From: Callorhinchus milii
Taxonomy: Eukaryota
Assembly: GCF_018977255.1 (NCBI RefSeq)
Contig: NW_024704746.1
Location: forward strand, 46,128,001-46,192,000
Direction: 5' to 3'
DNA: 64,000 nt
A program made the position numbers and the translations under genes. Positions 3,707-42,064 of this stretch are shown here, piece after piece. The stretch's first letter is position 1. Each line of letters begins with the position of its first letter. The notes under the pieces were generated by a model. The model was not told where the DNA came from, searched no databases, and saw only the letters and a program-made list of their open reading frames with translations.

Positions 3707-3876
3707 CTTGTCTTGATTTGTCTTGTTACCATAACAAAGATTTCCTATAAGACGGATCAAATGGGCTTTAAAGCCCATAGCAGGATGAGTGATGGTGTCT
3801 GTGACTGCTGACGACTGGGATGCACTGAAGATGTTCCTATTTTGCTTTCCTGCAAGGTGCGTCCGACGCAAAAGTT
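3707..3876 (-). CDS. ATXN10: ATXN10 exon 9 (ELLRRTHLAGK...GFKAHLIRLIGNLCYGNKTNQDK), start of the Ataxin-10 domain
   Basis: Acceptor ctgtctgttgcag, donor gtgaga; 170 nt; diagnostic GFKxHLIRLIGNLCY motif. Confidence 0.97.
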
Positions 3877-5081
3877 CTGCAACAGACAGAAGCGAAGGAA
3901 GAATGAAAACGATAAAATTGTGACAATTTCCACCTCCCTGCAAGTGGTATAATCCATTTTGAACAAAATGTTTTACAATTATTCCTAAAGTTACACTGAC
4001 CATAAAAAGCATTCATTATGCGTTGGTACAGTATCATGAAAGTTAAGTGGGCTGAGATTAAGGGGCTGGGATAAGGGAGGTGAAGCAGATGCTTCTCACT
4101 TCTGGGATTTGATTTTGAACCCAGTCCTAAATGACGGAATGCAAGTCTTAAATTAATTGGCAGTCTCAATATAGTTGCTTCAGTTCTTTGTCGGGCACAG
4201 TGCTATAGCACAAAAGTATCCATAAATTGATGCCAAGTGGCCCTCACAGTTAAATAAGAGACAGCTGTGTCGGATGCTTTTTTTAAAAAAAGTTTTAAAT
4301 CATTTTGGATTTTGACCTCAGCAGCCCTTTGAATTGTATAACCACAGTGTGCAAATTTTGTGAAGTGTGTGTACAAGTAGCAAATGAAACCCTCATGGAT
4401 AAATAATTTTGGGGGAAAAAAAAGGCTTGGAAGCAGAGCTACGTAAGAAAACTATGAATAACTAGAACAAGCACTGGTGTTCAGTGATATGAATTGATCC
4501 TCACAAGATCAATTGATATCACTGAACTTCACTGTATTGGGAGTGAATTCTTCAAGACCATGGCGCATATAGTCAACTGGTCCCTCTCTTCCAGCACTAT
4601 TCCCCCATCGCATTCAAAACCACTTTACAAAACCACCTCCTTCTCAAGAAACCTTCAATTCCTCCAAATTCTCTAACTACAGGCCCACCCACAAACTGTC
4701 CTCCCTGTCCAAAGTACTGCGATGCATTGTTGCCACTGACATTTACTCCCACCTTTCTCTCCACTTTCTGCCAAGCTCCCCTTGCTCTTCCCATTCTCGG
4801 CATTGGTCACCAGCAGAGTACATCAGAGCTCCATCCTCAGTCTGCATCCTTTCTCCTCCTTCTCCCACCCCACACTTCTGTTCAACCCTCCGCTCAGCTA
4901 GCCTGTTGCACATCCCTGTCCTCTCTGTACCACCTTCGGTGACTGAGCCTTCAATTACTACATCAGCTATTATCTGGATGTCCCTCTCTCCTCCGTTTCT
5001 ACCTGTCTTTAAAAAAACCTAACCCTGCTTAATTAATTTCTCATAAACCCTCTTGTACTTCCAGTTTACTTTGGCACTTAC

Positions 5082-5190
5082 CTACAACAGTCTCCACCAA
5101 TCCAGGAGAGTTCTGCAAATGAATGAACTGATCATGGTTGGAAGTTGTTTCACAGAGAATATCAAGAAGCCGAATTACAATGAGTGCTTC
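5082..5190 (-). CDS. ATXN10: ATXN10 exon 8 (EALIVIRLLDILCETTSNHDQFIHLQNSPGLVETVV)
   Basis: Acceptor atttgcacag, donor gtaagt; 109 nt; IRLLDxLCE motif. Not present in the ORF track. Confidence 0.96.
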
Positions 5191-5890
5191 CTGTGCAAAT
5201 GACAAATAGATGTATTACTTTTTGGAATATTTTAAGGGCAGACAAAATACTCTCCCTTAAAAATAAAATAAAATAATGAGATGCAGTAACCAGCCCATCT
5301 GGACCAAATCACAAACACCAAACGAGAAGATTTTCGCAATTAAATATTATTAAACCGCTTATCAAATATAGTCTCCGAATTATTGATCAGTAACTTCAAA
5401 ATCAAAACAAGCTCACAGCAGCATGACCCACCAAAAGGATTTTTTTTTCTAATTCCAGTTGAAACCAAAAGTACTTGACTATTTTCACACGTAAATTCAG
5501 TGACTGAATTTCTGTCCGTGTCCAGTTAACTATGTTTTGAAGAAAACATTTCCCATATGTCCCAATTAAAAACAAAAGCAATATACTTTAGTATTCTTAA
5601 GCGGCTGAAATGACTACAGAAAACTCCTGTAGCTTAGCTTAACTTGTCACTACCACTGAAGTCATCATGCTGTCAATATCCCAGGTTCACTCCCAGGCAG
5701 CGCGAAACGTTAGGCAAGTTTCCTTACTCCACACACCTCTGTTTGTCCAGCAATAAATAGTTTGCAAGGATTATTATTATTGTTATTAAAAGCCATCATT
5801 ACAGTTTTTCTAAGACACAACGGCCAAGGTTATTGGTAATAATGATGACACAACGACACAGTCTGCAGAGTATCTGGTCAAGTCGGTATC

Positions 5891-6236
5891 ATAATAATCC
5901 TTGCATTTGATATAGAGCCTCATCACGTTGTTGAGATGTCTCAAAGGACTTCTTAGAATATACTGTAAAATGAATTGACTGTATATTGTTTGGGTGAAAC
6001 GCGGCAGGCAATCGTGCACAGCAGTGTCCCACAGTCGTGACCCAATTTTTTTGAGGGATTATTGCCTCCCGGAAAGCGATCCTCCATTGACTAACAAGTA
6101 GGGTTCCTACTTACTACTTGGTAAATAGAGGCGAGTGGAGTAAGAAAACTTGCCTAAGGTTTCGCCCCGCCCGGGTTCGAAGCCGCGTTCTCTTGTTTGC
6201 GAGGTGAGTGCTTTAACCAATGCACTACAGGACTCT
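5891..6236 (-). mobile_element. SINE family A
   Basis: Reverse-complement copy with head and (ATT)n tail. Confidence 0.85.
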
Positions 6237-8399
6237 ATTTCCATTCATGTCTTGAAGCATGTATGGACCTCCTCACTGTTACCCTGATCAGTATGGGGGA
6301 AAACAGACAAGCCATGCCAGTCTGCAGCTGCCAAAGCACAAAGCTTGCCAAATAGAAACTCACAACTTAAAGGATTATTTCCAACTCAAAGAATCAATTA
6401 TTTCCTGTCTTCAAAGAACATTATAAAATTCAAACTATTTTCGCTCTGCATCATTGTTACCTGGCTTCATTTCCTCCCCTCCCCCTGACCCCAATGATCC
6501 TGAATGAAAGTTGTAACAAATCTGGAACCCATTTTTGAAAGAAGCAAAAAAAGCTTTTCAGCACGGTTACACAACACTGCTTGGCTTCCTGCAAAGCACC
6601 TTCAGCATTGTAAGATGTAAAATGAGTATAACTGAAGTGATTAAATCAGATGTATTCAAGAGGAAACTAGACCTTCACATAGGGGTGTAAGGAATGGGTG
6701 AAGATTCGTGTGGAATATTAGCACTGACATGGCCTGGTTCGGCCGAGTGGCATGTTTCTTTACTGTACATTCTTCATAATCTTTGTACTCAAACTGGCAT
6801 TAGTTCAACACCATCATGAGGAGATCATCTCACACTGCTTCATACTCCACCAATAGATCACAACTGCACCCATGCAAAAACCTTTTCAAAGTTTAGAAAC
6901 GATCTTGAGAGGTTGGGAACTGGCTTATCAGATCTTTTTGATCACTGCAAATTCTCCAGTCAGGTATCTGTGGGCGGAGTTCTGTGGGTGCATTTAGGTT
7001 TGCCAGCACAAATACATTCTCTACCCTAACTGGAAGGCAGTAAGAACAGAATAAGAAAAGAAACAAGTTTGCAGAATTGGAGTGTTACTATAGCTTTGTA
7101 ACAGTAAGTTTACAGGAGCTGTCATTTCTGAACTATCAGTTATTAAACAAGCTCTCAATTTCAAGGTGGCCACCACACAAGAACCTTGTACACATCTTTT
7201 TGGCGTGCTTCCCTATGTTTTGCAAATGATGTATCTGCACCAGTTGCAACATGAACTGGAGTCTCCCCATTTCAGAATGCTTGGACAATATCTCCTTCCA
7301 TGTCTTATGACATGAAAGGGGATATTCAAAATAGTGGAAGAGACAAACGAATCCAGGGTGTTAACATCTTTGAGCAATTCAAAAGATAATCGTTGGAGTT
7401 TGTAAGTTTTGGGAGGACGGCTTAATTTCACCCTTCATTGGAGCGGTTTATTGGCATTTAAGGATGCAATTCCTCTCTTTTATTAAAATTATTCTAATTA
7501 AATCATATTTGATGCTCCCCTTGCCCCTTCCTTCCTCATCTTCAGATCGCAACTGAAGACCTTTCTCTTCGATCGTGCCTACGGTCAACTCCCCCTTCAC
7601 CCCGACTCGGCGTCTAACACCACCACTGTCAAGCGGTCTGGGACGCTAGACTGCGTGAGAGACGCTATATAAATGCAAGTTATTGTTTGTTGTTGTTATT
7701 TAAACGTAACAGCTCGTGATAGTGATGGTTAACCTACAAATATTTTACAAACAAGAGCAACAGCAGGTGATGAAGATTGTTTGGCAAATGTGTGTGCCTC
7801 ATATATATATATATATGAGGCGCTTTCTCTCTTCACATTCTAATAATAATAATTATTTTGTATTTTTCACATAAAATTAATCTTTCAAAGCATTTTCCAA
7901 AGTAGAATTGGTTGAAAATGCAGGCAATAAATAAGCATCGCTCAGCTGCATCAGTAAAGTTTCATAAAGAATAATGAGATGAGCAGACAATTTATTCGAA
8001 TTTGGCTTAGGAGAGGAACATAAACCAGGATAACTTGAAAAAATACTCCACCACAAATCTTTGAATTAGCAATGTAAATATTAACATTTGGAATGTATAT
8101 AATGTGAATATGTTCATCAGAGTAAAATGATACAATGAGCCTTCATAGCAAACCTAGCAAAAAAAATCCTGGTAAACTTTTGCATTTTACAAATAGTTGT
8201 TTGTTGCAAACACTGAAGGTAGTCTTTGAAATTGAACCACCAAAAAATAATCCTCTATTTGCAACTCAAAACAATGGTTACAAAAAATAAACACAGAACA
8301 AATGAAATGATGCCACTAAATCTCCCCTGATTTTCAGCATGAGATCTTGATGACAGCAAATGTCGACACTGATGAATGGAATCATTCCCACCGACTTAC

Positions 8400-9097: not shown

Positions 9098-9178
9098 CTT
9101 TCTCGGTTGTTCAATTTAGTGTACACAGCAGCCACTACATCTGGACACTTCAGAAACTGGTCTGTCACAAGCAGACAC
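9098..9178 (-). CDS. ATXN10: ATXN10 exon 6 (CLLVTDQFLKCPDVVAAVYTKLNNRER)
   Basis: Acceptor cttctttcag, donor gtaagg; 81 nt; resembles human FLIITDLFLKSPELVQAMFPKLNNQER. Confidence 0.95.
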
Positions 9179-12118
9179 CTGAAAGAAGGGGTCACAAACA
9201 AATCTCTCGTTAGCTTTATATTGGAAAATATTATTTATCAACTTCAAGCAGCGCTTTTTAAATGACACCCCTCTGAGGTCCAACAGGTCACAAAGAGGCA
9301 ATACTATCATAATTATGGTTGATGACCGAACGGAAAAAAGGATATTTGGTTCACAGCGGAACCTGTGCAGCTTTGTGCAGATATGTGGAAGTGATTGAGA
9401 CTTTTTTTTGAATTAGTCAGATTTGATAATATTCCACAAAGGTTTAAGTTTATGATCTCTCGTCAACACGACAAAAGTAACATACACCCGTGTGAAGATC
9501 ATAATACCAGTTTGTTATAAAATCAGAGGTCACCTCACAGTTCATCAGTACTCCCACTGGCTTCTCAACAAGATTGTGGTGTAGGGCAGCGATCAGTACT
9601 CCTGACATTGGTATATCTCTGAGCACGAGCACAAACTGGGAAAGTCTTTGAAGCGATCTCTGGTCTGCACTGTGCTCAGCGGCCTCTGCCGGGTAATTAG
9701 TCATTACAATTAGCCTCAGCAACTGTGAGCAAAAGGAAAGCTACCAAATGTTACCTGCACATTGGTGAACCCTGTTGCAAGGGTGTTCGCAAGTGCTAAA
9801 ATGACCTTGCACTTTAATCCCAAATAATATAAACATATAAATTCAATTCAATTGAAATCAGAGACAGACATGCCAGCCAAATCATTGGGGGCCATATTAA
9901 ACTGACATACAATAAATCAGATGTCCAGCATGGAGGTCCTCCTAATACTTGACCATAATTAATCCTAATTAATATGTGAGAAGGAAAAAAATTTTTGTTC
10001 TTCTTCTGCTATTAATTTGATGGCAACAGAAGAAGCAAAGTACATTATAGAAGAGTGCAAAGTTCAACATGGTTCTTACCCTTACGTCAATAACAGCTGT
10101 TTATTTAATAAGGTGAATTTTAAAATCACAACTACCATCAGATTAATCAAGTAGCAGCTAGATTTTATGTAAAATAAGTGGAAAAAGTAACATACACCCG
10201 TGTGAAGATAACAATCTGTAATAGATACAACAAATTTTTTGATGCATCAATGTTTAAACAAAAACTCAAAAAAGAATGTTTTGTGCCCGTGTATACCATA
10301 ATTTAGATAAATGCACATCAATTTGAAAAAGATAATAATACCTTAATATGACTGAAACAGTAGCTTATTACATATATTCTACCACTATATTTTCTAGCCA
10401 AGTGGTGCTATAATTTTGCACTGGGCTGTTATCCAGACTTGGCACAATACAGGCTTTGTACCATTTTAAGGAAACTGAGTTGAAAATTGTCCAGGAAAAA
10501 AAAATACTGGTCACATCGGTGCCAAATGGCATCAGAGTCTTCCAGAACACAAAAAGAACTGGCTGTGTGGAGAAGTCATTTTTATCCTCAGCTTTCCTGC
10601 TGTCATTATTCACTTCAATAATGTACCTGAACTTACACAAATGGGTACTTCGACAAGCTTTCACCTTGACAACAATGCGCACTCCTGAACAGACACACTT
10701 TTTATGTTTAGCTTCACAAAAGAAGACGAATTATGAAAAAGGAAGAAAGGTAACTGAACACTTTAATTACCGAATATTAGAAGCCTAAATAGTCATATAA
10801 TATCCTAACCGTCAAATAATTTCTTTTTACTGGATTAGATTTAGCCAAAGAACGCTGTATTTATAAATTATTTTCCTCATTCTTTTAAAGCTTTTGTGTC
10901 ATCTGCATTCTTGCACTCTTAGCATTCTTTGTTCCAAAGGGCTTGTCTTTGTAACAAGAATTTTTTAAATGCAATTTTCATTCATCTTCTTTCTTCCAAA
11001 GATGATCTTCAAATGCATTTTTTGTTTGTTCTTAAATCGATTGAGTTTGGTGATGAGCTGTCTAACCACAGTACCATTGACCTTGGGACAGGCAAAATGA
11101 AGTGCACAATCATGAACCCCACTGCATTTACCATTGCATCATGTTGAGACTAGAAAAACAGATCATGGAAAGGAATGAGAAGCCTCAGTATTGACCATCT
11201 AAGTAGGAACCTGGTTGCTAGTCGGTTGGTGGGTTGCTTTCCTGGGGGTAATAATCCCTTCAAAAAAAAATAATTTGGTCACTCACTCCATGACTGTTTG
11301 TGGGACACTGCTGTGCGCAATTAGCTGCCGCGTTTCGCCCACAAAATACACAGTCACTATACTTTACAGCATATGCTATGAAGCTCTTTGAGATGTCTTG
11401 AAGACATGATAAGGCGCTATATCAAATGCAAGGATTATTATTATATTATTAACTATCCTCAACTCATCCTGTCAAGAGTAACAGGAGTGCTGCTTCATGA
11501 GGCAGTTTCAAAAATATATTTAAATGCACATTTTTGTTTGGCAAATTGTGGGGAGATTGAATGACAGATTCATTCTACCAAGTCGCCCAAATTAAGTCAC
11601 TGTTCTTTAATTGCAATTTTTTTAGATAGCAAGGTATTTTAAAAGAGAAAATGGAAATTTCTTTGCATGTAAATTCTCGCATTATCAGAATATGTAATAT
11701 ATAATAATCATCTTTTCATTTGATACCTCATCTTACCACATCACCAAGTGTCTCAACGCACTTCAAGTGTAGTGACTGTGTATTTGTAGCAGCCAATTTC
11801 GACACATTGTCCCACAAACAGCCACGAAGTGAATGATCAATTTTATAAATGTCTTGTAACAATATCTTAAGAGGCAATAAACACAGCAAATATAAAAAAA
11901 TTATATTTTTAGTTTTCACTTTTAAGTTTCTATTATTGTAGTAGTTATGGAAGTATTTATTCCTGATTATTTATTCAACTTGGGTCAAAATTAATAATAT
12001 AGTATAAGGCGTTTTGGAGACAGCATTGAAAATAATCCATACAGTCTTCAAAATTCTATGCATCTTCTCTTCAACTAAATAGACGAGAGGTTGTTAATGT
12101 CTCTCAGAGAATACATAC

Positions 12119-12286
12119 GCCCAGTCGAGCTCAGGTTCTGTCCTGCAGATGTTGACAACCGTTTTAACCAGTTCAATTCCTCTGTCGTGAGTCAGGAGAT
12201 CGTCTGTTCGCTCAGCACTGAGGCAGCTGAACAGCACCATACAGCAATAGGCAACGGCTTTCTCATCAGAACACTTCAGATAATTT
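12119..12286 (-). CDS. ATXN10: ATXN10 exon 5 (NYLKCSDEKAVAYCCMVLFSCL...ICRTEPELDW)
   Basis: Acceptor ctttctttccacag, donor gtatgt; 168 nt; resembles human HPDKKIVAYSSMILFTSL...HPESEW. Confidence 0.94.
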
Positions 12287-34754: not shown

Positions 34755-36365
34755 TACAGACCAAGTAAGTTTGATGTCCATTGTAGGTAAAAGTATGGAA
34801 ACTCTTATTGAGGATAAAATCATGGAGCATCTGGACAGAAATAAAATCATAAATGATAGCCAATATGGATTTATGAAGGGGAGGTATTGCCAATTTAATT
34901 TATTGATTTTCTTTGATGGTGTGACAAGGAAGCTTGATAAGGATAAGGCTGTGGATGTTGAATATCTGGATTTCAGTAACGCCTTTGATACAGTTCCTCT
35001 TGAGAGGCTGATACTGAAAGTAAAGAAAGCGGGAATCAGTGGAGGTATATTACAAATGGATATGCTACTGGTTGACAGGGAGAGCCAAGAGGGTGGTGGT
35101 ACAGGGAATGTCATCAGACTGGGAAAATGTTACCAGTGGAGTTCCATAAGGGTCTGTTTGGTGACCTTTTGTTTAATATTTTTATAAATGATCTGGAACC
35201 AAGGGTCGTGAGCACAGTAGCTAAGTTTGCAGATGATATCAAGCTACTGAAGGTGGTAGATTGCGAAGCTGAACAAGATAGGTTACAGGAGGATTTGAAC
35301 ATACCTGGGAATTTGGCAGATCAGTGGCAGATTAAATTCAATGTGGAGAAATATAAAGTATTTCACATGGGGACAAAAAATCCTGGGACTATTATTTGAA
35401 AGGAAGGAAAATAATATGTATGGAAAATGAAAAGGACCTGGGGTCCTGATTGACAACAATAATAAATAATCCTTGCATTTGATATAGCGCTTTTCACGGC
35501 TTCTAGACGTCTCAAAGCGCTTCACAGAATATACAGTAAAGTGAATTGACAGTATATTTTGTGAGCAAAACGTGGCAGCCAATTGCGCACAGCAGTGTCC
35601 CACAAACAATCGTGGAATCAAAACGCGGTCTCTCGCTTGCGAGGCAAGTGCTCTAACCACTGAGCTACAGGACTCCTGCAGGACAATAAATTGAAGCTCT
35701 CCCAACAATGCTCTGTGACAGTGAGTAAAGCAAACCAGATGTTGGAATGTATCAAAAGATCAATAGCAAACTGAAATAGTGGGGTAATCCAGCCACTGTA
35801 TAAATCATTGATGAGGCCATACTTAGAGTACTGTGTACAGTTCTGGTCACCGCAGTACAAAAAGGATATTGGAGAAATCGAGAAGATACAGAGGAGGTTA
35901 ACCAAAATGAATGAGGGAATGGAAGGACTGGACTATGAGGAGTGACTAAATAAATTGGGCATATTCACGCTGGAAGAGAAGATGGAGAGGTGACATGATT
36001 ACTGTCTTTAAGATTCTAAAGGGGAAAAACAATATAGATCATGACAGGCTGTTTCAACTTGTCCAGAATAGTGAAACCAGAGGACATGGCCTGTGATTGA
36101 AGTGGTGTAAATTCAGAACAAATCTACACAAAACACTATTTCAGTGCGTGAATAGTGAATCTGTGGAACAGGCTCCCCAGGGAGACGGTTGAGGGAGGAA
36201 GTGGAATTCTTTCAAATACAGATTAGATAGTTTTCTTTCAGGAAATAACATTATGGGATATAGTACATGGGTAGTTCGGGACATATGTGCAGGCGACCGC
36301 CAGGAAGGTGGAAGGCGAACTGATCTTTTTTTGTCTAGAATTTCTTATATTCATATGTTCTTATG
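34755..36365 (+). mobile_element. CR1 LINE 3' portion (RT domain and tail), interrupted by a SINE
   Basis: SIVGKSMETLI, SQYGFMKGR, YLDFSNAFDTVP, LFNIFINDL, KFADDIKL and RPYLEYCVQFWSP motifs; tail ends ..tatgttcttatg. Confidence 0.9.
35455..35676 (-). mobile_element. SINE family A, internally deleted, inserted in CR1
   Basis: Head joined directly to core and tail; CR1 sequence on both sides. Confidence 0.85.
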
Positions 36366-36436
36366 CTCCAACACAATATGCCACTGCCCTCATTGTGAGA
36401 AACCTTAACAGAAAGGCCAAAGGAAGTTTTGCTTGC

Positions 36437-36634
36437 CTTATGAGATTCTGGTTCTTGCCACATTGCACGCAAGCATTTCGGAGACAGCGGAAGCATTCAG
36501 CACTCAACTGCAAACGAGCTGCAAGTTGCTCATTTCTATTATCATTTGGATCTTCAGTGAACAGCTCCATCTCAGTCAACTGTATCTTCAGAATGTGTTT
36601 AAGACTTTCAAATACACATTGTGTTGCCTCCTCC
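36437..36634 (-). CDS. ATXN10: ATXN10 exon 2 (EEATQCVFESLKHILK...ECFRCLRNACVQCGKNQNLIR)
   Basis: Acceptor ttttactttgaag; conserved ECFRCLRNAC motif; ends AG|gcaagc (GC donor), phase 2. Confidence 0.93.
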
Positions 36635-37057
36635 CTTCAAAGTAAAAGATAAAAAAAATCAGCACAATTATATACAGTACTGTGGAAAACAATCAGTGAC
36701 AGTCTGTATTAGGTTAAAGAGAGCAATTCACACATATCTGGCATTATATTGTTCAGCTCATGTCTTGGGACCCAAGAACATTGTATCACTGTGAACATAC
36801 CCTTTGTCAGCAGCAAATGTATATTACGCACAGCAATGGACTTCTCTTTAGAGGGATTGTCCCCAGATTTCCCACTCCTGCCTCCAAAGTTATTTCTGCT
36901 GAACCAAGGGTATAAGCAGGGCCAATAGAAAATTGCAGAAATGTTTGCCAAAAATTGCAGGGCATTTGACAAATTTCGTGGAAACTTGGGGAGAAACTTG
37001 ATAAAATTGAGGAGGGTTGACGGGTGCAATTGAGACGCATTTTGCTGCTAACCTACA

Positions 37058-37410
37058 GTGGAGTCCTGTAGTTCAGTGGTTAGAGCGCTCTCCTCACAAG
37101 CAAGACTTGGTTCGATTCCCAGCAGGGCAAAATGTTGGGCAAGTTTCCTTACTCCACATGCCTCTGTTCACCTAGCAGTAAGTAGGAACCTGGCTGTTAG
37201 TCGATTGGTGGATCACTTTTCCAGGGTAATAATTCCTTCCAAAAAAATAATAAATTGGTCACTCAATCCACAACTGTTTGTAAGACACTGCTGTGTGCAA
37301 CTGGTTACCGCTTTTCGCCCACAAAATATAGTCAATTCACTTGACAGTATATTGTGTGAAGTGCTGAGATGTCTCGAAGACTGATAAGACGCTTGTCAAA
37401 TGCAAGGAAT
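37058..37410 (+). mobile_element. SINE family A, nested in the hAT element
   Basis: Same head, core and tail as the 23494-23870 copy. Confidence 0.88.
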
Positions 37411-37628
37411 TTTTTTTTCACGTTATTGTTAAAAGCTAAACATGAAGAAATAACACATCATACTAGATTGTTGGGAAAAAAACAATTTATTAATGTTTTC
37501 TTCAACAAAAACCAGAACATAACACCTTTCAAAAGATGCAAAACTACAGTTTGAACAGTTTGCAGAGAAACTAAAATTTTCTAACTCAAATTTTCACAGA
37601 AACAAACTGAAAATTCTCAGCCAAATGT

Positions 37629-39999
37629 TTAGTGCTCGTTAATTTTTAACATGAGAAGAATCTTTACACTGTCTTGTGTTAGGTTTTGTCTATTGTCTTT
37701 CAACACGTCTGCACAAACAGAAAATGAGCTTTCCATGTCAGCAGTGCTCGCTGGTAGCCAAATGTACCTTTTTGCAATTTTAGCAGGTTTCACAAGTGGC
37801 TCAGGTTGAGCTTTCCACCAGACTGCTATTATCTTTTCAGCTGGGATAATTTCTGCAGCTGCTTTGTAGGCATGCCATTCAAAGTTTGATACAGCGGAAG
37901 GGGCAAGAATCACAAGTCTTGTTTTGCATCCAGTGTTACTAGCTGGTGAGGATCAAAAACACGAGCTGTTTTGCAGTTAGCAATTGATGGGTGCTTTTTC
38001 AAAATCAGTCCTAACCTTTCACTTCTGTCTTGCATGATTCTCTGGAAAAGGTTGACACAAGCCTCTCCCTCACTCTCAGAATAGGCTGCCAATGTTTGCA
38101 CTGTCTTTGGTCTGTACTCCTACACTCCAGCAGTGGCACAGAAATCAATAAACGAATGTAAGTACAGATTGTGCCCTGAGGCACAGCTGTTACCTGACAT
38201 TCTTCAGTAAGTTTTGTGAGTTCAAATGAGTGCTCTGTCACAAAAGTTGTTTGGGCTTGCATCTCTGCAGCGTTATTGTTCAAGAGCTTTTTCATTTTTG
38301 TTTCACTGCTAAGGCCTCTGATGCAGTTCATTGAAGAAATTCTGCTAAGACAGACAAGTACTCATCCAAATATTCAACAGCCTTCACCCAGGAGCACCAA
38401 CACATCTGAACAACAAAGACTGGCATCTATGGTTCAATTCCATCCTTCGCCTCCATAAGTTCCAAGTATTGATTGCCAGCACATTGGACTTTGGCAGAAT
38501 ACTTTCTTGACCATAGCAACCACTGTGTTTAAGTCCTCCAGTATAACAGGATAAATTTCCAAAATCAAGTTCAGAAGATGTGCAATAATAATAATCCTTG
38601 CATTTGATCAAGTCTTTGTGACATCTCAAAGTGCATCACAGAATATTCTGTAAAGTGAATTGACTGTATATTTTGGGGGTGAAACGTGGCAGCCAACTGT
38701 GGGACTGCAGTGTCCCACAAACAATCGTGGATTGAGTGACCAATTTATTTTTGAAGGATTATTATCCCCGGAAAAGCGATCCACCAGTCGATTTACAATC
38801 GGATTCCTACTTACTGCTAGGAGAACAGAGGTATGTGGAGTAAGTAAACTTGCCCAACATTTTGCCCTGCCGGGAAACAAACCCTGGACTCTGGCTTGCG
38901 AGGCGAGTGCTCTAACCACTAAGCTTTAGGACTCCACTATGCATGTAATATGGATTGCATTTGGAAACAATTCCGATGGAATGGTGTTAAATGCTTTGAT
39001 CATGTAGCTTGCACTGTCTGTGGCAACTGCAAGCAGTCAAATTTAACCTGTTTTACATTTAAGATTCGTAGAAGAGCTTGTGACAGTGGCGTTGTTCTCT
39101 CGTTGCAAGAATTTTACTCCAATAAGAAAAGGATTCTCCTCAACGTTCTGCAGTGGCTGTGCCAGCACTGACAGAACACTGCACCCGCTGGAATCAGTGG
39201 TCTCATCCAGGAACAAGTACACATCTGTGTCGTCAACATGTCTTTTCAACAATGCTTCATGCTCAGGAATAAACTCTTTCCAAGTATGTATTACAAAGCT
39301 TTGATGGTGTTGGAATAATCCCTCCCTGTTTTGTGTGCTTGCATAGAAACTCTTGGAAGGCAGGAGCTTTTTCAAGTGGTATGTCTGCTCTAGTCAAACA
39401 CCTCACAAAGTCCAATATGAATTCTTTCCACTCCGTAGATGATGCAATGATTCTAGAGATGCAGGTTGTCAAAACAAGGTGGCTTTAAGGTCCAGTTCCA
39501 TCTAGAAAGGAAAAAATAAAAATTGATCTTCATGATGCATTTGTAGTTATGTCTATTTGTTTGTGTTTGCTGTGGTTGCTTTGTGCGCTTTTAAAATAAT
39601 AATCCTTACATTTGATATAGCACCTTATCACATCTTCGAGACATCTCAAAGCATTTCAGAATATACTGTAAAGACTACGTTGTGGGCAAAAAATGTCAAA
39701 AAAATTCAATCCAAAAGGAGGGAGATTAACTTTTGTAATTATAAGAATTAAGATTTTCTTTCAATAGTAAAATGAAAGCAAATAATGATGCATTTTCATT
39801 TAATATTATATCAAATGTATTTTGCTTTATTTTCTTTACTGCCACTGCCTTGTGTTCACAAAGTTTCCGAGATTGCATGTGCTCATCAATGGTTACTTGC
39901 GAACATGATCAATTGTGTGTTAGCAAATGCGACAAAACCAGTGCCCACCGTCTTCATAATGGTCATCTGGATAGAGTATAATTCTATCTGAGGGACAGC
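37629..39999 (-). pseudogene. hAT transposase pseudogene: BED-type zinc finger, CGGBP1-like helical domain, DDE core and hATC dimerization domain
   Basis: Fragments in order: DRIILYPDDHYEDGGHWFCRIC*HTIDHVRK/TIDEHMQS; DFVRCLTRADIPLEKAPAFQEFLCKHTKQGGIIP; LFLDETTD; ATDSASYMIKA; HITCI/AHLLNL; WWK...IWLPASTADMESSFS...DNRQNL. Contains stops, frameshifts and SINE insertions. Confidence 0.88.
38585..38937 (-). mobile_element. SINE family A, nested in the hAT transposase
   Basis: Full reverse-complement copy that splits the HITCI/AH motif. Confidence 0.88.
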
Positions 40000-40933
40000 C
40001 TGAAAATGAGACGTGTTGCCCCTTGGCTTCCTCACGGGAGTTACAAAAACGTTTGGACATATTTGTATTGTACACCCCTGACTACAAACTATAGGTGTAT
40101 ATTTCCTGAAAATGTAGTCATGTTTAAAATACTAAAAATTTTAATTTTGAATAGTACAGCACTTACCAAGAATTCATCTCGGGAGTTCAGTTTAGGCCGG
40201 GCAAATAAGATGGCAGTAGTGTCACACAGCTGGTATTTCTATCATGGTTCATCCACTAGCGGGCGAAGCTGATTTCCCACTCACGCCCCTTCCGTGATCC
40301 CAACTCTCCCTGCACCGGACACGTGCGACAGGAGCCGCTCCGCCCACAGTAGCAGCATTGAGCAAACAACGCGCAGAGGCCTGGGGCACTGTGTTTTTAC
40401 AGGTGTGTAGCGAGGAGGGAATTTGTAGCGAATTCCGCGGAAAAAGTGTGGCTGCACTTTTCAGTTGGCCCAGGGTATAAGTATATGCAACAAGCAGTTA
40501 AGCTGTACAGGCCCTAGGTTTTGATCAACCATTTGTGCTTAGATACCCTATCTCAGTCATGCAAGGGAAAGGGTACTTTAATGGTTATCAGTCACAATAG
40601 ACTGGGGAGAGGCCAAAAAAAAGACAGCATTTTTGATTCACTTTCCTGTCCAATGACTCCTGATGGGACATGAGCTGTTTGGAGGTTAACTGAAAACAGG
40701 ACCAACACTACTCACTGTCTTGTCATGTGAACATCTGGAAACAGCAAGAGAAGGAGGCCATTTCAACACATTTCCGTCGATTGCACCAGTTTATTAACCA
40801 TCCTCAGGTGATTGCACTCTTGTCTCTGAGTCAAAGGGTTGGGGGTTCAAATCCCACCTCAGGACTTTGCACTCGTGTGGCCGAGACTGACACTCAATAC
40901 TACATTGTAGTATTGGGGAGTGTGGATGTTGTA

Positions 40934-41232
40934 GACACATGAGCCCGTCCTGAGGCTGCCCGGGGGTGGGGGGGATCAGACATCTGAGCCTGTGTCTGGG
41001 GGGGACGGACACCTAAGCCCTGTCCCGTAGGGGGGAAATCAGACGTCTGAGCCTCGGGGGCGGAGCAAGACACCTGAGCCCTGTCCCGTGGGGCGGGGGA
41101 GACATTTGAGCCTGTGGGGGGGGGGAGAGAAGACACCTGAGCCCTGTCCCGTGGGGCGGGGGAGACATTTGAGCCTGTGGTGGGGGGGGGGGGAGAAGAC
41201 ACCTGAGCCCTGTCCCGTGGCGGGTGGGGGAG
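40934..41232. repeat. G-rich minisatellite, about 62-66 bp unit built from two ~31-bp subunits
   Basis: gacacctgagccctgtcccgt recurs near 41007, 41069, 41132 and 41198, alternating with gacatttgagcctgtgg(G)n. Confidence 0.9.
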
Positions 41233-41284
41233 AGGGAGTATGGAGTCTCTCGTGTTTCCTGCGCTCCCCGTTGGCCTCTCTCAC

Positions 41285-41427
41285 CTGCCGCGCCGCTCCC
41301 TGAAGGCACCGGTTAAGCTCTGGATGGGTGTCAGGGTGTCCGGTGCCGGGTCTCCTCCCCGGCTGTCCGGGCCCAGCGCGAGTAACCGCGCTCCCAGCGC
41401 ACACACCGCCTCCCTGGGCGCCGCCAT
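41285..41427 (-). CDS. ATXN10: ATXN10 exon 1 coding part (MAAPREAVCALGARLL...LTGAFRERRGR)
   Basis: AAGATGGCGGC start context in a CpG-rich region; ends AG|gtgaga, phase 2; MAAPR start and LTGAFRE resemble the vertebrate ATXN10 N-terminus. Confidence 0.9.
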
Positions 41428-41580
41428 CTTCCTGCCCGCCGACAGTGACGTGAGGACCTGACGTGATGACGTACTGACGTGCGCTCCGCGGAGCCCCCCC
41501 CCCCGGGGGCGCCAAATTTGAATTCTCCGCCGGAGCGAATTTGTAAACGAAGCGCAAAGACCGCGATCAGAGAGTGGGCG
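41420..41580 (-). promoter_or_regulatory. ATXN10 CpG-island promoter / 5'UTR with four TGACGT motifs, an E2F-like site, a CHR-like site and a YY1 motif over the ATG
   Basis: CpG-dense region in an AT-rich window; TGACGT at 41446, 41459, 41467, 41475; GCGCCAAA 41509-41516; TTTGAA 41517-41522; GCCGCCATCTT 41420-41430. Confidence 0.75.
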
Positions 41581-41585
41581 CACAC

Positions 41586-41825
41586 TCCCCCCCCCATCTC
41601 CCTCTGCTCCCCCCCCCATCTCCCTCTGCTCCCCCCCACCATCTCCCTCTGCTCCCCCCCCCCATCTCCCTCTGCTCCCCCCCCCATCTCCCTCTGCTCC
41701 CCCCCCCATCTCCCTCTGCTCCCCCCCCCATCTCCCTCTGCTCCCCCCCCCCATCTCCCTCTGCTCCCCCCCCCCCCCCCCCCCCCCATCTCCCTCTGCT
41801 CCCCCCCCCCCCATCTCCCTCTGCT
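41586..41825. repeat. Minisatellite, 10 copies of (C)n-ATCTCCCTCTGCT (about 22-23 bp unit)
   Basis: Directly visible perfect core with variable C-run length, including one run of about 22 C. Confidence 0.97.
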
Positions 41826-42064
41826 TCACAAGGCCAGCATTGCTGATACAAATTGGAGACTGCTGATTTTTCGAGGCTCTCCGTTGAAGCCGGAGAGGCG
41901 TTATAATAATAATAATAATAATAATAATCCTTGCACTTGATACAGCACCTTATCACATGGTCGAGACGTCTCAAAGCGATTCACAGAATGCATTATAAAG
42001 TGGATTGACTGTGTATTGTGTGGGCAAAACGCGGCAGTCAACTGCACGCAATTAGCATTTCTCA

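Follow-up and report, generated by a model that had tools for sequence, protein, structure and literature searches.

A decayed full-length copy of a CGGBP-type hAT transposon family in Callorhinchus milii, probably sister to teleost hATs

Introduction

Does a dead transposon in Callorhinchus milii belong to the mobile family that gave rise to CGGBP1, or to another branch of the same group? The question is raised by one locus in a 64-kb stretch of DNA, referred to here as the window. A first-pass annotation, made from the letters alone, had described the locus as a fossil hAT element with both ends preserved and a transposase that starts with a CGGBP1-like module. The element was taken for a mobile relative of the CGGBP1 progenitor, with candidate ancestral binding sites near its ends.

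The transposases of hAT elements share a DDE triad, a CxxH motif, and an RW motif. The superfamily is described as having TIRs of 10–25 bp and a length of 2.5–5 kb in the available text of one source (PMC3942097). CGGBP-like hATs of the hAT-19 subclass and their link to CGGBP1 have already been published (Yellan, Yang and Hughes 2021, PMC8097297); in the available part of that paper, 29 of 824 RepeatMasker hATs, mainly hAT-19, are reported to carry the CGGBP domain, with dozens of domestications. Fossils of hAT19 in amniote ancestors (Frith 2022, PMC9004415) and the derivation of CGGBP1 from a coelacanth-type CGGBP (PMC11575156; bioRxiv 2024.11.14.623544) are reported in excerpts of other work. 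Here, we argue that the locus very probably holds a full-length but dead member of a multi-copy CGGBP-type hAT family. The family likely belongs to the hAT-19 subclass, and its sister group is formed by teleost hATs rather than by CGGBP1.

Results

Boundaries of the element

The element was found to occupy 36917–40473 (3557 bp) and to be flanked by an exact 8-bp duplication, GGTATAAG, with a left copy at 36909–36916, consistent with the target preference of the family, and an exact duplicate at 40474–40481. The TIRs are 22 bp long and minus-strand, with the 3' end of the element at 36917–36938 and the 5' end, which pairs with it, at 40452–40473. The two arms matched at 18 of 22 positions, and the 3' TIR has two mismatches compared to the 20-nt family TIR. 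The 64-kb window was scanned for 8-bp direct repeats that immediately flank an inverted repeat matching at 18/22 or better. Two matches were found, while the same scan gave none in each of 20 Markov shuffles of the window. The second match, at 37199–38793, was rejected as it was formed by two inverted SINEs within the element. The TSD and TIRs of the first-pass annotation were thus verified by coordinates, scan, and shuffles.

Three insertions that are missing from other family copies interrupt the element, two SINEs and one SINE fragment. The first SINE (37058–37410, plus strand) is absent from other copies at its junction and has 131 matches in host loci. Its head looks tRNA-like by eye, and no tRNA gene was found in it by ARAGORN. 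The second (38587–38938, minus strand) is 80% identical to the first and was inserted within the CxxH codons. The third is a 3' fragment at 39598–39702 (minus strand), inside a predicted intron of the transposase gene.

The transposase gene of the window copy

All the motifs named in the first-pass annotation lie on the minus strand in the order given there, among them BED, DETTD, TDSASYM, CxxH, ESSFS, and hATC. The first coding exon (39826–40060, minus strand) encodes a C2H2 BED finger, which reads CxxC ... HxxxxxH in the family, and contains one stop and one frameshift in the window copy. It is followed by a predicted minus-strand intron at 39502–39825, supported by the family majority and single-copy donors, that separates the BED finger from the Hermes-DBD. 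The intron is GT..AG in the family, and its donor is GC in the window copy. The main exon (37629–39501, minus strand) carries the Hermes-DBD region, DETTD (39207–39193), TDSASYM (39021–39001), the CxxH motif, the W of the RW motif, ESSFS (37733–37719), and the hATC domain, and is broken by frameshifts, stops, and the second SINE. The CxxH motif is present as claimed, but the SINE splits it so that it is legible only across that insertion. At least eight frameshifts and five in-frame stops were counted in the gene by eye, in six frames and against relatives. Both D residues, the W, and the E can still be read in this copy.

The Pfam search proposed earlier detected the hAT dimerisation domain but no zf-BED. 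The C-terminal piece at 37632–37943 passed for Dimer_Tnp_hAT (PF05699) with 28.8 bits against a cut-off of 21.4, and neither a zf-BED nor a Hermes-DBD family was found by Pfam in the two N-terminal pieces of the window copy. According to the available text of Yellan 2021 (PMC8097297), Pfam does not find zf-BED or Hermes-DBD in CGGBP1 either.

The family in the genome

A core DNA search of the same genome gave at least 43 matches, which apart from the self match were 73–91% identical (40 of 75 candidates scored). The 20-nt TIR had 283 exact matches in the genome compared to 0 for a control, and its 13-nt core had 1003 compared to 10. These counts imply at least about 500 elements, perhaps 1,500 when decay is allowed for. 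Altogether, 81 loci were examined: the window copy, 20 loci selected for their coding similarity, and 60 drawn from the first 100 entries in the list of 283 TIR matches. Both ends were present in 49 of the 81, and 35 of these 49 were shorter than 1.6 kb and represent deleted non-autonomous copies. The flanks of the two-ended elements were identical at 7–8 of 8 positions in 22/49, compared to 3.2% between elements, and at all 8 positions in 11/49, compared to 0.4%. The remaining 27 matched at 6 or fewer positions, which could reflect decay, deletion, or mispairing by the script. Other TIR-bounded copies and short derivatives, which the first-pass annotation had suggested looking for, are thus present in both the genome-wide TIR search and the locus survey.

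Without the SINEs, the element is about 2.73 kb long. The median distance to the column majority was 0.081 over 41 copies, and that of the window copy was 0.098. Short non-autonomous copies, for which ~200–400 aligned sites at ends that differ between copies gave distances of 0.16–0.19, were excluded from dating. Mismatch rates across copies were 0.068, 0.065, and 0.069 at the three codon positions, and such equal decay is as expected of copies that were dead on arrival. The column-majority coding region is stop-free in each tile. It encodes ~590 aa and is predicted to contain a single GT-AG intron, which follows the BED exon. It retains CxxC, HxxxxxH, D, D, CxxH, RW, and E, of which D177, D242, C267xxH270, W330, and E560 align with relatives that have open frames. 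With 83 of 169 candidates scored, none of the 90 matches was an open full-length copy, and six Callorhinchus milii gene models in the databases resemble decayed family copies. We conclude that the family was once active and is now dead.

Relation to CGGBP1

The CGGBP1-like N-terminal module is real. The family majority is 38% identical to mammalian CGGBP1 over 136 aa (BLASTP E 2e-24), and the window copy is 33% identical. The two N-termini are homologous, with aligned Cys/His ligands and with two prolines and the EDGG..FC and IPLEKA blocks common to both, and a profile of family N-termini retrieved mammalian and snake CGGBP1. The best Atlas match for a family gene model was a CGGBP1-like cluster at 0.94, which may be the cluster of the model itself. 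The N-terminal profile had no significant match in the PDB, and the family profile matched Hermes transposase structures with an E of about 2e-5.

Other proteins are nearer to CGGBP1. The family ranked 79 of 296 among matches to mammalian CGGBP1, and higher identities were seen for coelacanth LOC102354807 (55%), tuatara (52%), reedfish (52%), and sturgeon (50%). We used KxDHP as our own marker for the CGGBP1 lineage; this two-residue stretch is common to CGGBP1 and its nearer kin and is missing, as a gap in the Hermes-DBD region, in the family and the window copy. No close CGGBP1 orthologue was found in the Callorhinchus milii genome, where the best of 21 matches were 33–43% identical (75 of 75 candidates scored).

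A phylogeny with CGGBP proteins, also proposed in the first-pass annotation, placed the family beside teleost hATs and away from CGGBP1. The N-terminal tree had 66 rows and 151 columns; 232 rows covered the region, 163 remained after removal of redundancy, 101 unnamed rows were omitted, and three of the six database gene models were included. The family grouped with teleost hATs with support of 95/85, and CGGBP1 grouped with coelacanth LOC102354807 (99/88) and then with tuatara and reedfish (100/94). The deep split that parts the two clades had support of 92/69 on the family's side. An AU test rejected a clade of the family and CGGBP1 (p = 0.000118), with a log-likelihood 49.6 lower. A quick catalytic-domain tree of 41 rows independently placed the family with the teleost clade (SH-aLRT 99) and grouped the coelacanth, reedfish, and tuatara proteins, in which parts of the catalytic set are missing, elsewhere (97). 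These protein comparisons place the family as a cousin of the CGGBP1 lineage, not its ancestor.

Subterminal repeats and target sites

The usual terminal sequence of hATs is 5'-YAR, which is a tendency rather than a strict criterion. The ends of this family begin with CTGGG and depart from it. CTGGG starts 17 of 26 ends in the loci chosen by coding DNA and CAGGG starts none; the A in second place at the 36917 end is private to this copy.

The alignment of 67 family 3' ends revealed four to five direct repeats of the type AA(A/T/G)TTGCGG in the 3' subterminal region, at 36929–37010 (minus strand) of the window. These repeats are decayed in the window copy, where two read TGCAG. The 5' subterminal region (40250–40451, minus strand) is CpG-rich, and in the family it starts with an inverted TGCGG pair and a CCGCGG palindrome. 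Inner 3' sites across the family read CAG in 25 cases, CGG in 20, and TGG in 17. Since both CpG decay products occur among these sites, the AAAATTGCAG repeat singled out in the first-pass annotation is likely a CpG-decayed form of an ancestral TGCGG. For the first inner motif, the anchor was kept in 31/67 ends, with CAG in 13, CGG in 6, and TGG in 6, and some inner 3' sites may have carried an ancestral CAG.

Flanking sequences were compared to published target consensuses, which are nTnnnnAn for Ac/Hermes (PMC8961557, PMC10368747) and nnnTAnnn for Buster (PMC3517528) in the available text of these sources. A central AT was found in 107 of 134 flanks (background 7.7%) and the palindrome SYnATnRS in 63 (background 0.27%). 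The Ac pattern was seen in 61 (background 8.5%), but the central AT is the stronger signal. Only 3 of the 134 flanks had the central TA of the Buster target.

Host locus and age of the insertion

Minus-strand exons of a host gene were found at 12119–12286, 9539–9722, 9098–9178, and 3707–3876, and we take this gene to be ATXN10-like. The exons matched Pfam Atx10homo_assoc with an E of 3e-4, which is below the cut-off and confined to an exon edge. A candidate first exon is predicted at about 41284–41427, which suggests that the element likely sits in the first intron of the gene in sense orientation. Its CpG-rich 5' end is about 0.8 kb from the promoter-like CpG island of the host gene. None of the matching sequencing runs is annotated as RNA, and no spliced transcript was seen. 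In one presumed-RNA run, exact contigs cover parts of the element and its flank; they fit unspliced intron or DNA and are uninformative on expression.

A DNA contig of a related organism (B) aligned over 36226–36951 and differed at 93 of ~725 bases; this interval covers the left flank and reaches 35 nt into the element. With regard to the empty site that the first-pass annotation had proposed to look for in related species, this sole informative relative carries the insertion at the left junction. Among the contigs listed, none showed an empty site and none crossed the right junction. Because the contig crosses that junction, the insertion is likely old and probably predates the split from organism B, as judged from one contig and one junction. 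Sequencing runs of organism B and two other related organisms (C and D) cover transposase bins.

Discussion

Classification and nearest relatives

The family has the features of a hAT element, namely an 8-bp TSD, a TIR of 20–22 bp, a length of ~2.73 kb, the DDE, CxxH, and RW motifs, and PF05699. It likely belongs to the hAT-19 subclass, a label given because its protein is of the CGGBP type and because the CGGBP domain is stated by Yellan to mark mainly hAT-19. The elements hAT-19_Crp, hAT-13_LCh, hAT-4_LMi, and hAT-1_RPr share with it the BED and Hermes-DBD head, the DDE core, hATC, and a length of ~2.7 kb. Candidate binding motifs are subterminal in both; for four hAT-19 elements, the available text of Yellan 2021 (PMC8097297) reports motif matches there. 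The groups hAT5, hAT6, and hAT7 are named by duplication length in the available part of one source (PMC12730594). A nearer CGGBP1 relative in the same assembly was seen to have 6-bp duplications.

The nearest whole proteins are those of teleost hATs annotated as 'CGG triplet repeat-binding 1' or uncharacterized (P0001–P0023), for example from Labeo, Coregonus, Hypomesus, and Thunnus. They form the sister clade in both trees, are about 45% identical over ~510 aa, and also lack KxDHP. In several of them, the main exon is still open over ~490–530 aa, in contrast to the dead family described here. Ends of sister families were sought in a metagenome scan, which gave five short, distant loci of 24–37% identity that were left unused. 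Amniote CGGBP1 (P0316 from shrew, P0318 from possum, P0188 from rattlesnake) has the same two-part head with aligned C2H2 ligands, but it is a domesticated gene without the catalytic domain and belongs to the other sub-lineage, with coelacanth, reedfish, and tuatara. The 8-bp duplication and short TIRs are common to this family, the Hermes/Ac group, and the Buster group. In Hermes, the ends are asymmetric, with short subterminal repeats that are bound by BED domains, according to the available text of one study (PMC10368747), and the ends of this family are likewise asymmetric. Its target, with a central AT and G/C at both outer positions, appears to differ from that of Ac/Hermes and differs from that of Buster.

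Alternative explanations

Could the ends and the duplication be chance matches around unrelated transposase fragments? The strong target preference of the family does make similar flanks likelier (the between-element mean is 3.9/8), yet full identity is as rare between elements as reported above, the duplication GGTATAAG was equalled by none of 264 other flank readings, the shuffles gave no match, and colinear full-length copies end at the same termini. This explanation, to which we give next to no credence, is refuted. The description of the element as a fossil hAT that is complete to both boundaries and starts with a CGGBP-type module is upheld by the ends, the colinear copies, and the N-terminal protein comparison. 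It is extremely unlikely that amniote CGGBP1 arose directly from this family or has its closest mobile relative in it, with the ends of the family as the ancestral binding sites of CGGBP1. The shared blocks, the identity to CGGBP1, and subterminal repeats that contain CGG speak for such a relation, but the coelacanth, tuatara, reedfish, and sturgeon proteins are much closer and the family lacks KxDHP. Both trees and the AU test largely refute this origin, and with the family's rank among CGGBP1 matches they leave any special closeness to the CGGBP1 progenitor unsupported.

Another possible explanation is that the window copy, or its CpG-rich 5' end, was co-opted by the host, either for gene regulation or as a gene of the CGGBP kind. 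In favour of this, an old insertion is shared with a relative, a promoter-like CpG island is close by, and database gene models exist for decayed copies. Against this stand the stop and frameshift inside the BED exon and the altered donor site, as well as a divergence (0.098) and CpG loss (0.27) of the window copy that are no lower than the family's, the lack of codon-position bias across copies, and the lack of an open full-length copy among the matches scored. Co-option thus appears very unlikely, and the window copy is likely without function today.

A model for the family

The preferred reading, a dead copy of a once mobile CGGBP-type family, would proceed as follows. A spliced transposase of ~590 aa would use its BED and Hermes-DBD head to bind both the TIRs and the TGCGG repeats next to them; we infer this step from Hermes, whose BED domains are described as binding short, asymmetrically placed subterminal repeats (PMC10368747, available text), and from what has been published on DNA binding by hAT-19 proteins. 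Its DDE core would excise the element, which would insert at palindromic SYnATnRS sites and leave 8-bp duplications; both the target preference and the duplications are observed. The same transposase would have mobilised the hundreds of internally deleted copies. The family would then have died, and the window copy, in its host intron, would have decayed neutrally and taken the three SINE insertions. The subterminal repeats proposed earlier as binding sites would be good candidates for the BED and Hermes-DBD head, more so when read as TGCGG, but very probably not as ancestral sites of the CGGBP1 progenitor.

Significance

The origin of CGGBP1 is not opened by this family: its derivation from a hAT is already in print, and coelacanth, reedfish, and tuatara have closer kin. 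No description of the family and no hAT19 target consensus was found in the open literature searched; Repbase, Dfam, and subscription journals lay outside the search and may catalogue the family. Table S1 of Yellan 2021 (PMC8097297, Repbase 2018), in the part available, has no cartilaginous-fish hAT-19 family. Our analysis therefore adds a well-bounded, old, high-copy CGGBP-like hAT family from a host group missing in that table. It also supplies a measured target preference and candidate CGG-containing sites.

The features that merit a specialist's attention, and that were not found in print, are the strict SYnATnRS target, the 5'-CTGGG ends, and the likely TGCGG repeats. Tentatively, and with rather more doubt than confidence, they could mark the CGGBP-type hAT lineage as a third target-site class, with the SYnATnRS palindrome, CTGGG ends, and TGCGG repeats. 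If this is true, recognition of a site with a CpG would be ancient in the entire CGGBP/hAT-19 group, whose members would differ in their choice of target.

A second CGGBP-type hAT in the assembly

A second CGGBP-type hAT was found in the source genome assembly at positions 4113-7495 of scaffold C429 (locus L127), with a matching element on scaffold C400 (loci L128 and L130). This is a young element, with perfect 21-bp TIRs, three exons and long frames without stops, and the two copies are 98.9% identical. Both are flanked by duplications of 6 bp, not 8 bp, as in hAT6. In the tree, it falls nearer CGGBP1, on the side with KxDHP, the two-residue-longer stretch that CGGBP1 and its nearer kin have in common.

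The two scaffolds, examined over C429:1-16000 and C400:52000-67999, look foreign. Their GC content is 50-52%, and CpG observed/expected is 0.84-0.92 compared to a median of 0.37 at host loci. No host SINE was found on either stretch, and no repeats were common to them and the host loci compared. Judged by sequence composition and repeat content, both scaffolds are likely contamination in the assembly.

Six Callorhinchus milii database gene models (P0116, P0118, P0126, P0145, P0178 and P0210) do not look like host genes. They seem to have been predicted on degenerate copies of the main family, although one carries the name CGG triplet repeat-binding protein.

Host gene and other repeats

An ATXN10-like gene probably spans 3707-41427 of the window on the minus strand. 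Exons were located at 3707-3876, 9098-9178, 9539-9722 and 12119-12286, but those between these and a candidate first exon (about 41284-41427), which is inside a CpG island, were not. This promoter island is bracketed by GC-skewed minisatellites at 40930-41230 and 41560-41830, with units of about 30-60 bp and 22-23 bp, respectively. A fragment at 35700-36350, which resembles a CR1-type LINE 3' end, showed high repeat depth in all four sequencing runs.

Proteins grouping with CGGBP1

In the N-terminal tree, amniote CGGBP1 forms a clade with proteins from coelacanth (P0182, LOC102354807), reedfish (P0268) and tuatara (P0287). All three are long proteins derived from hATs, and their catalytic motifs are altered. 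CGGBP1 may have arisen by truncation of a hAT protein that had been domesticated earlier in bony vertebrates.
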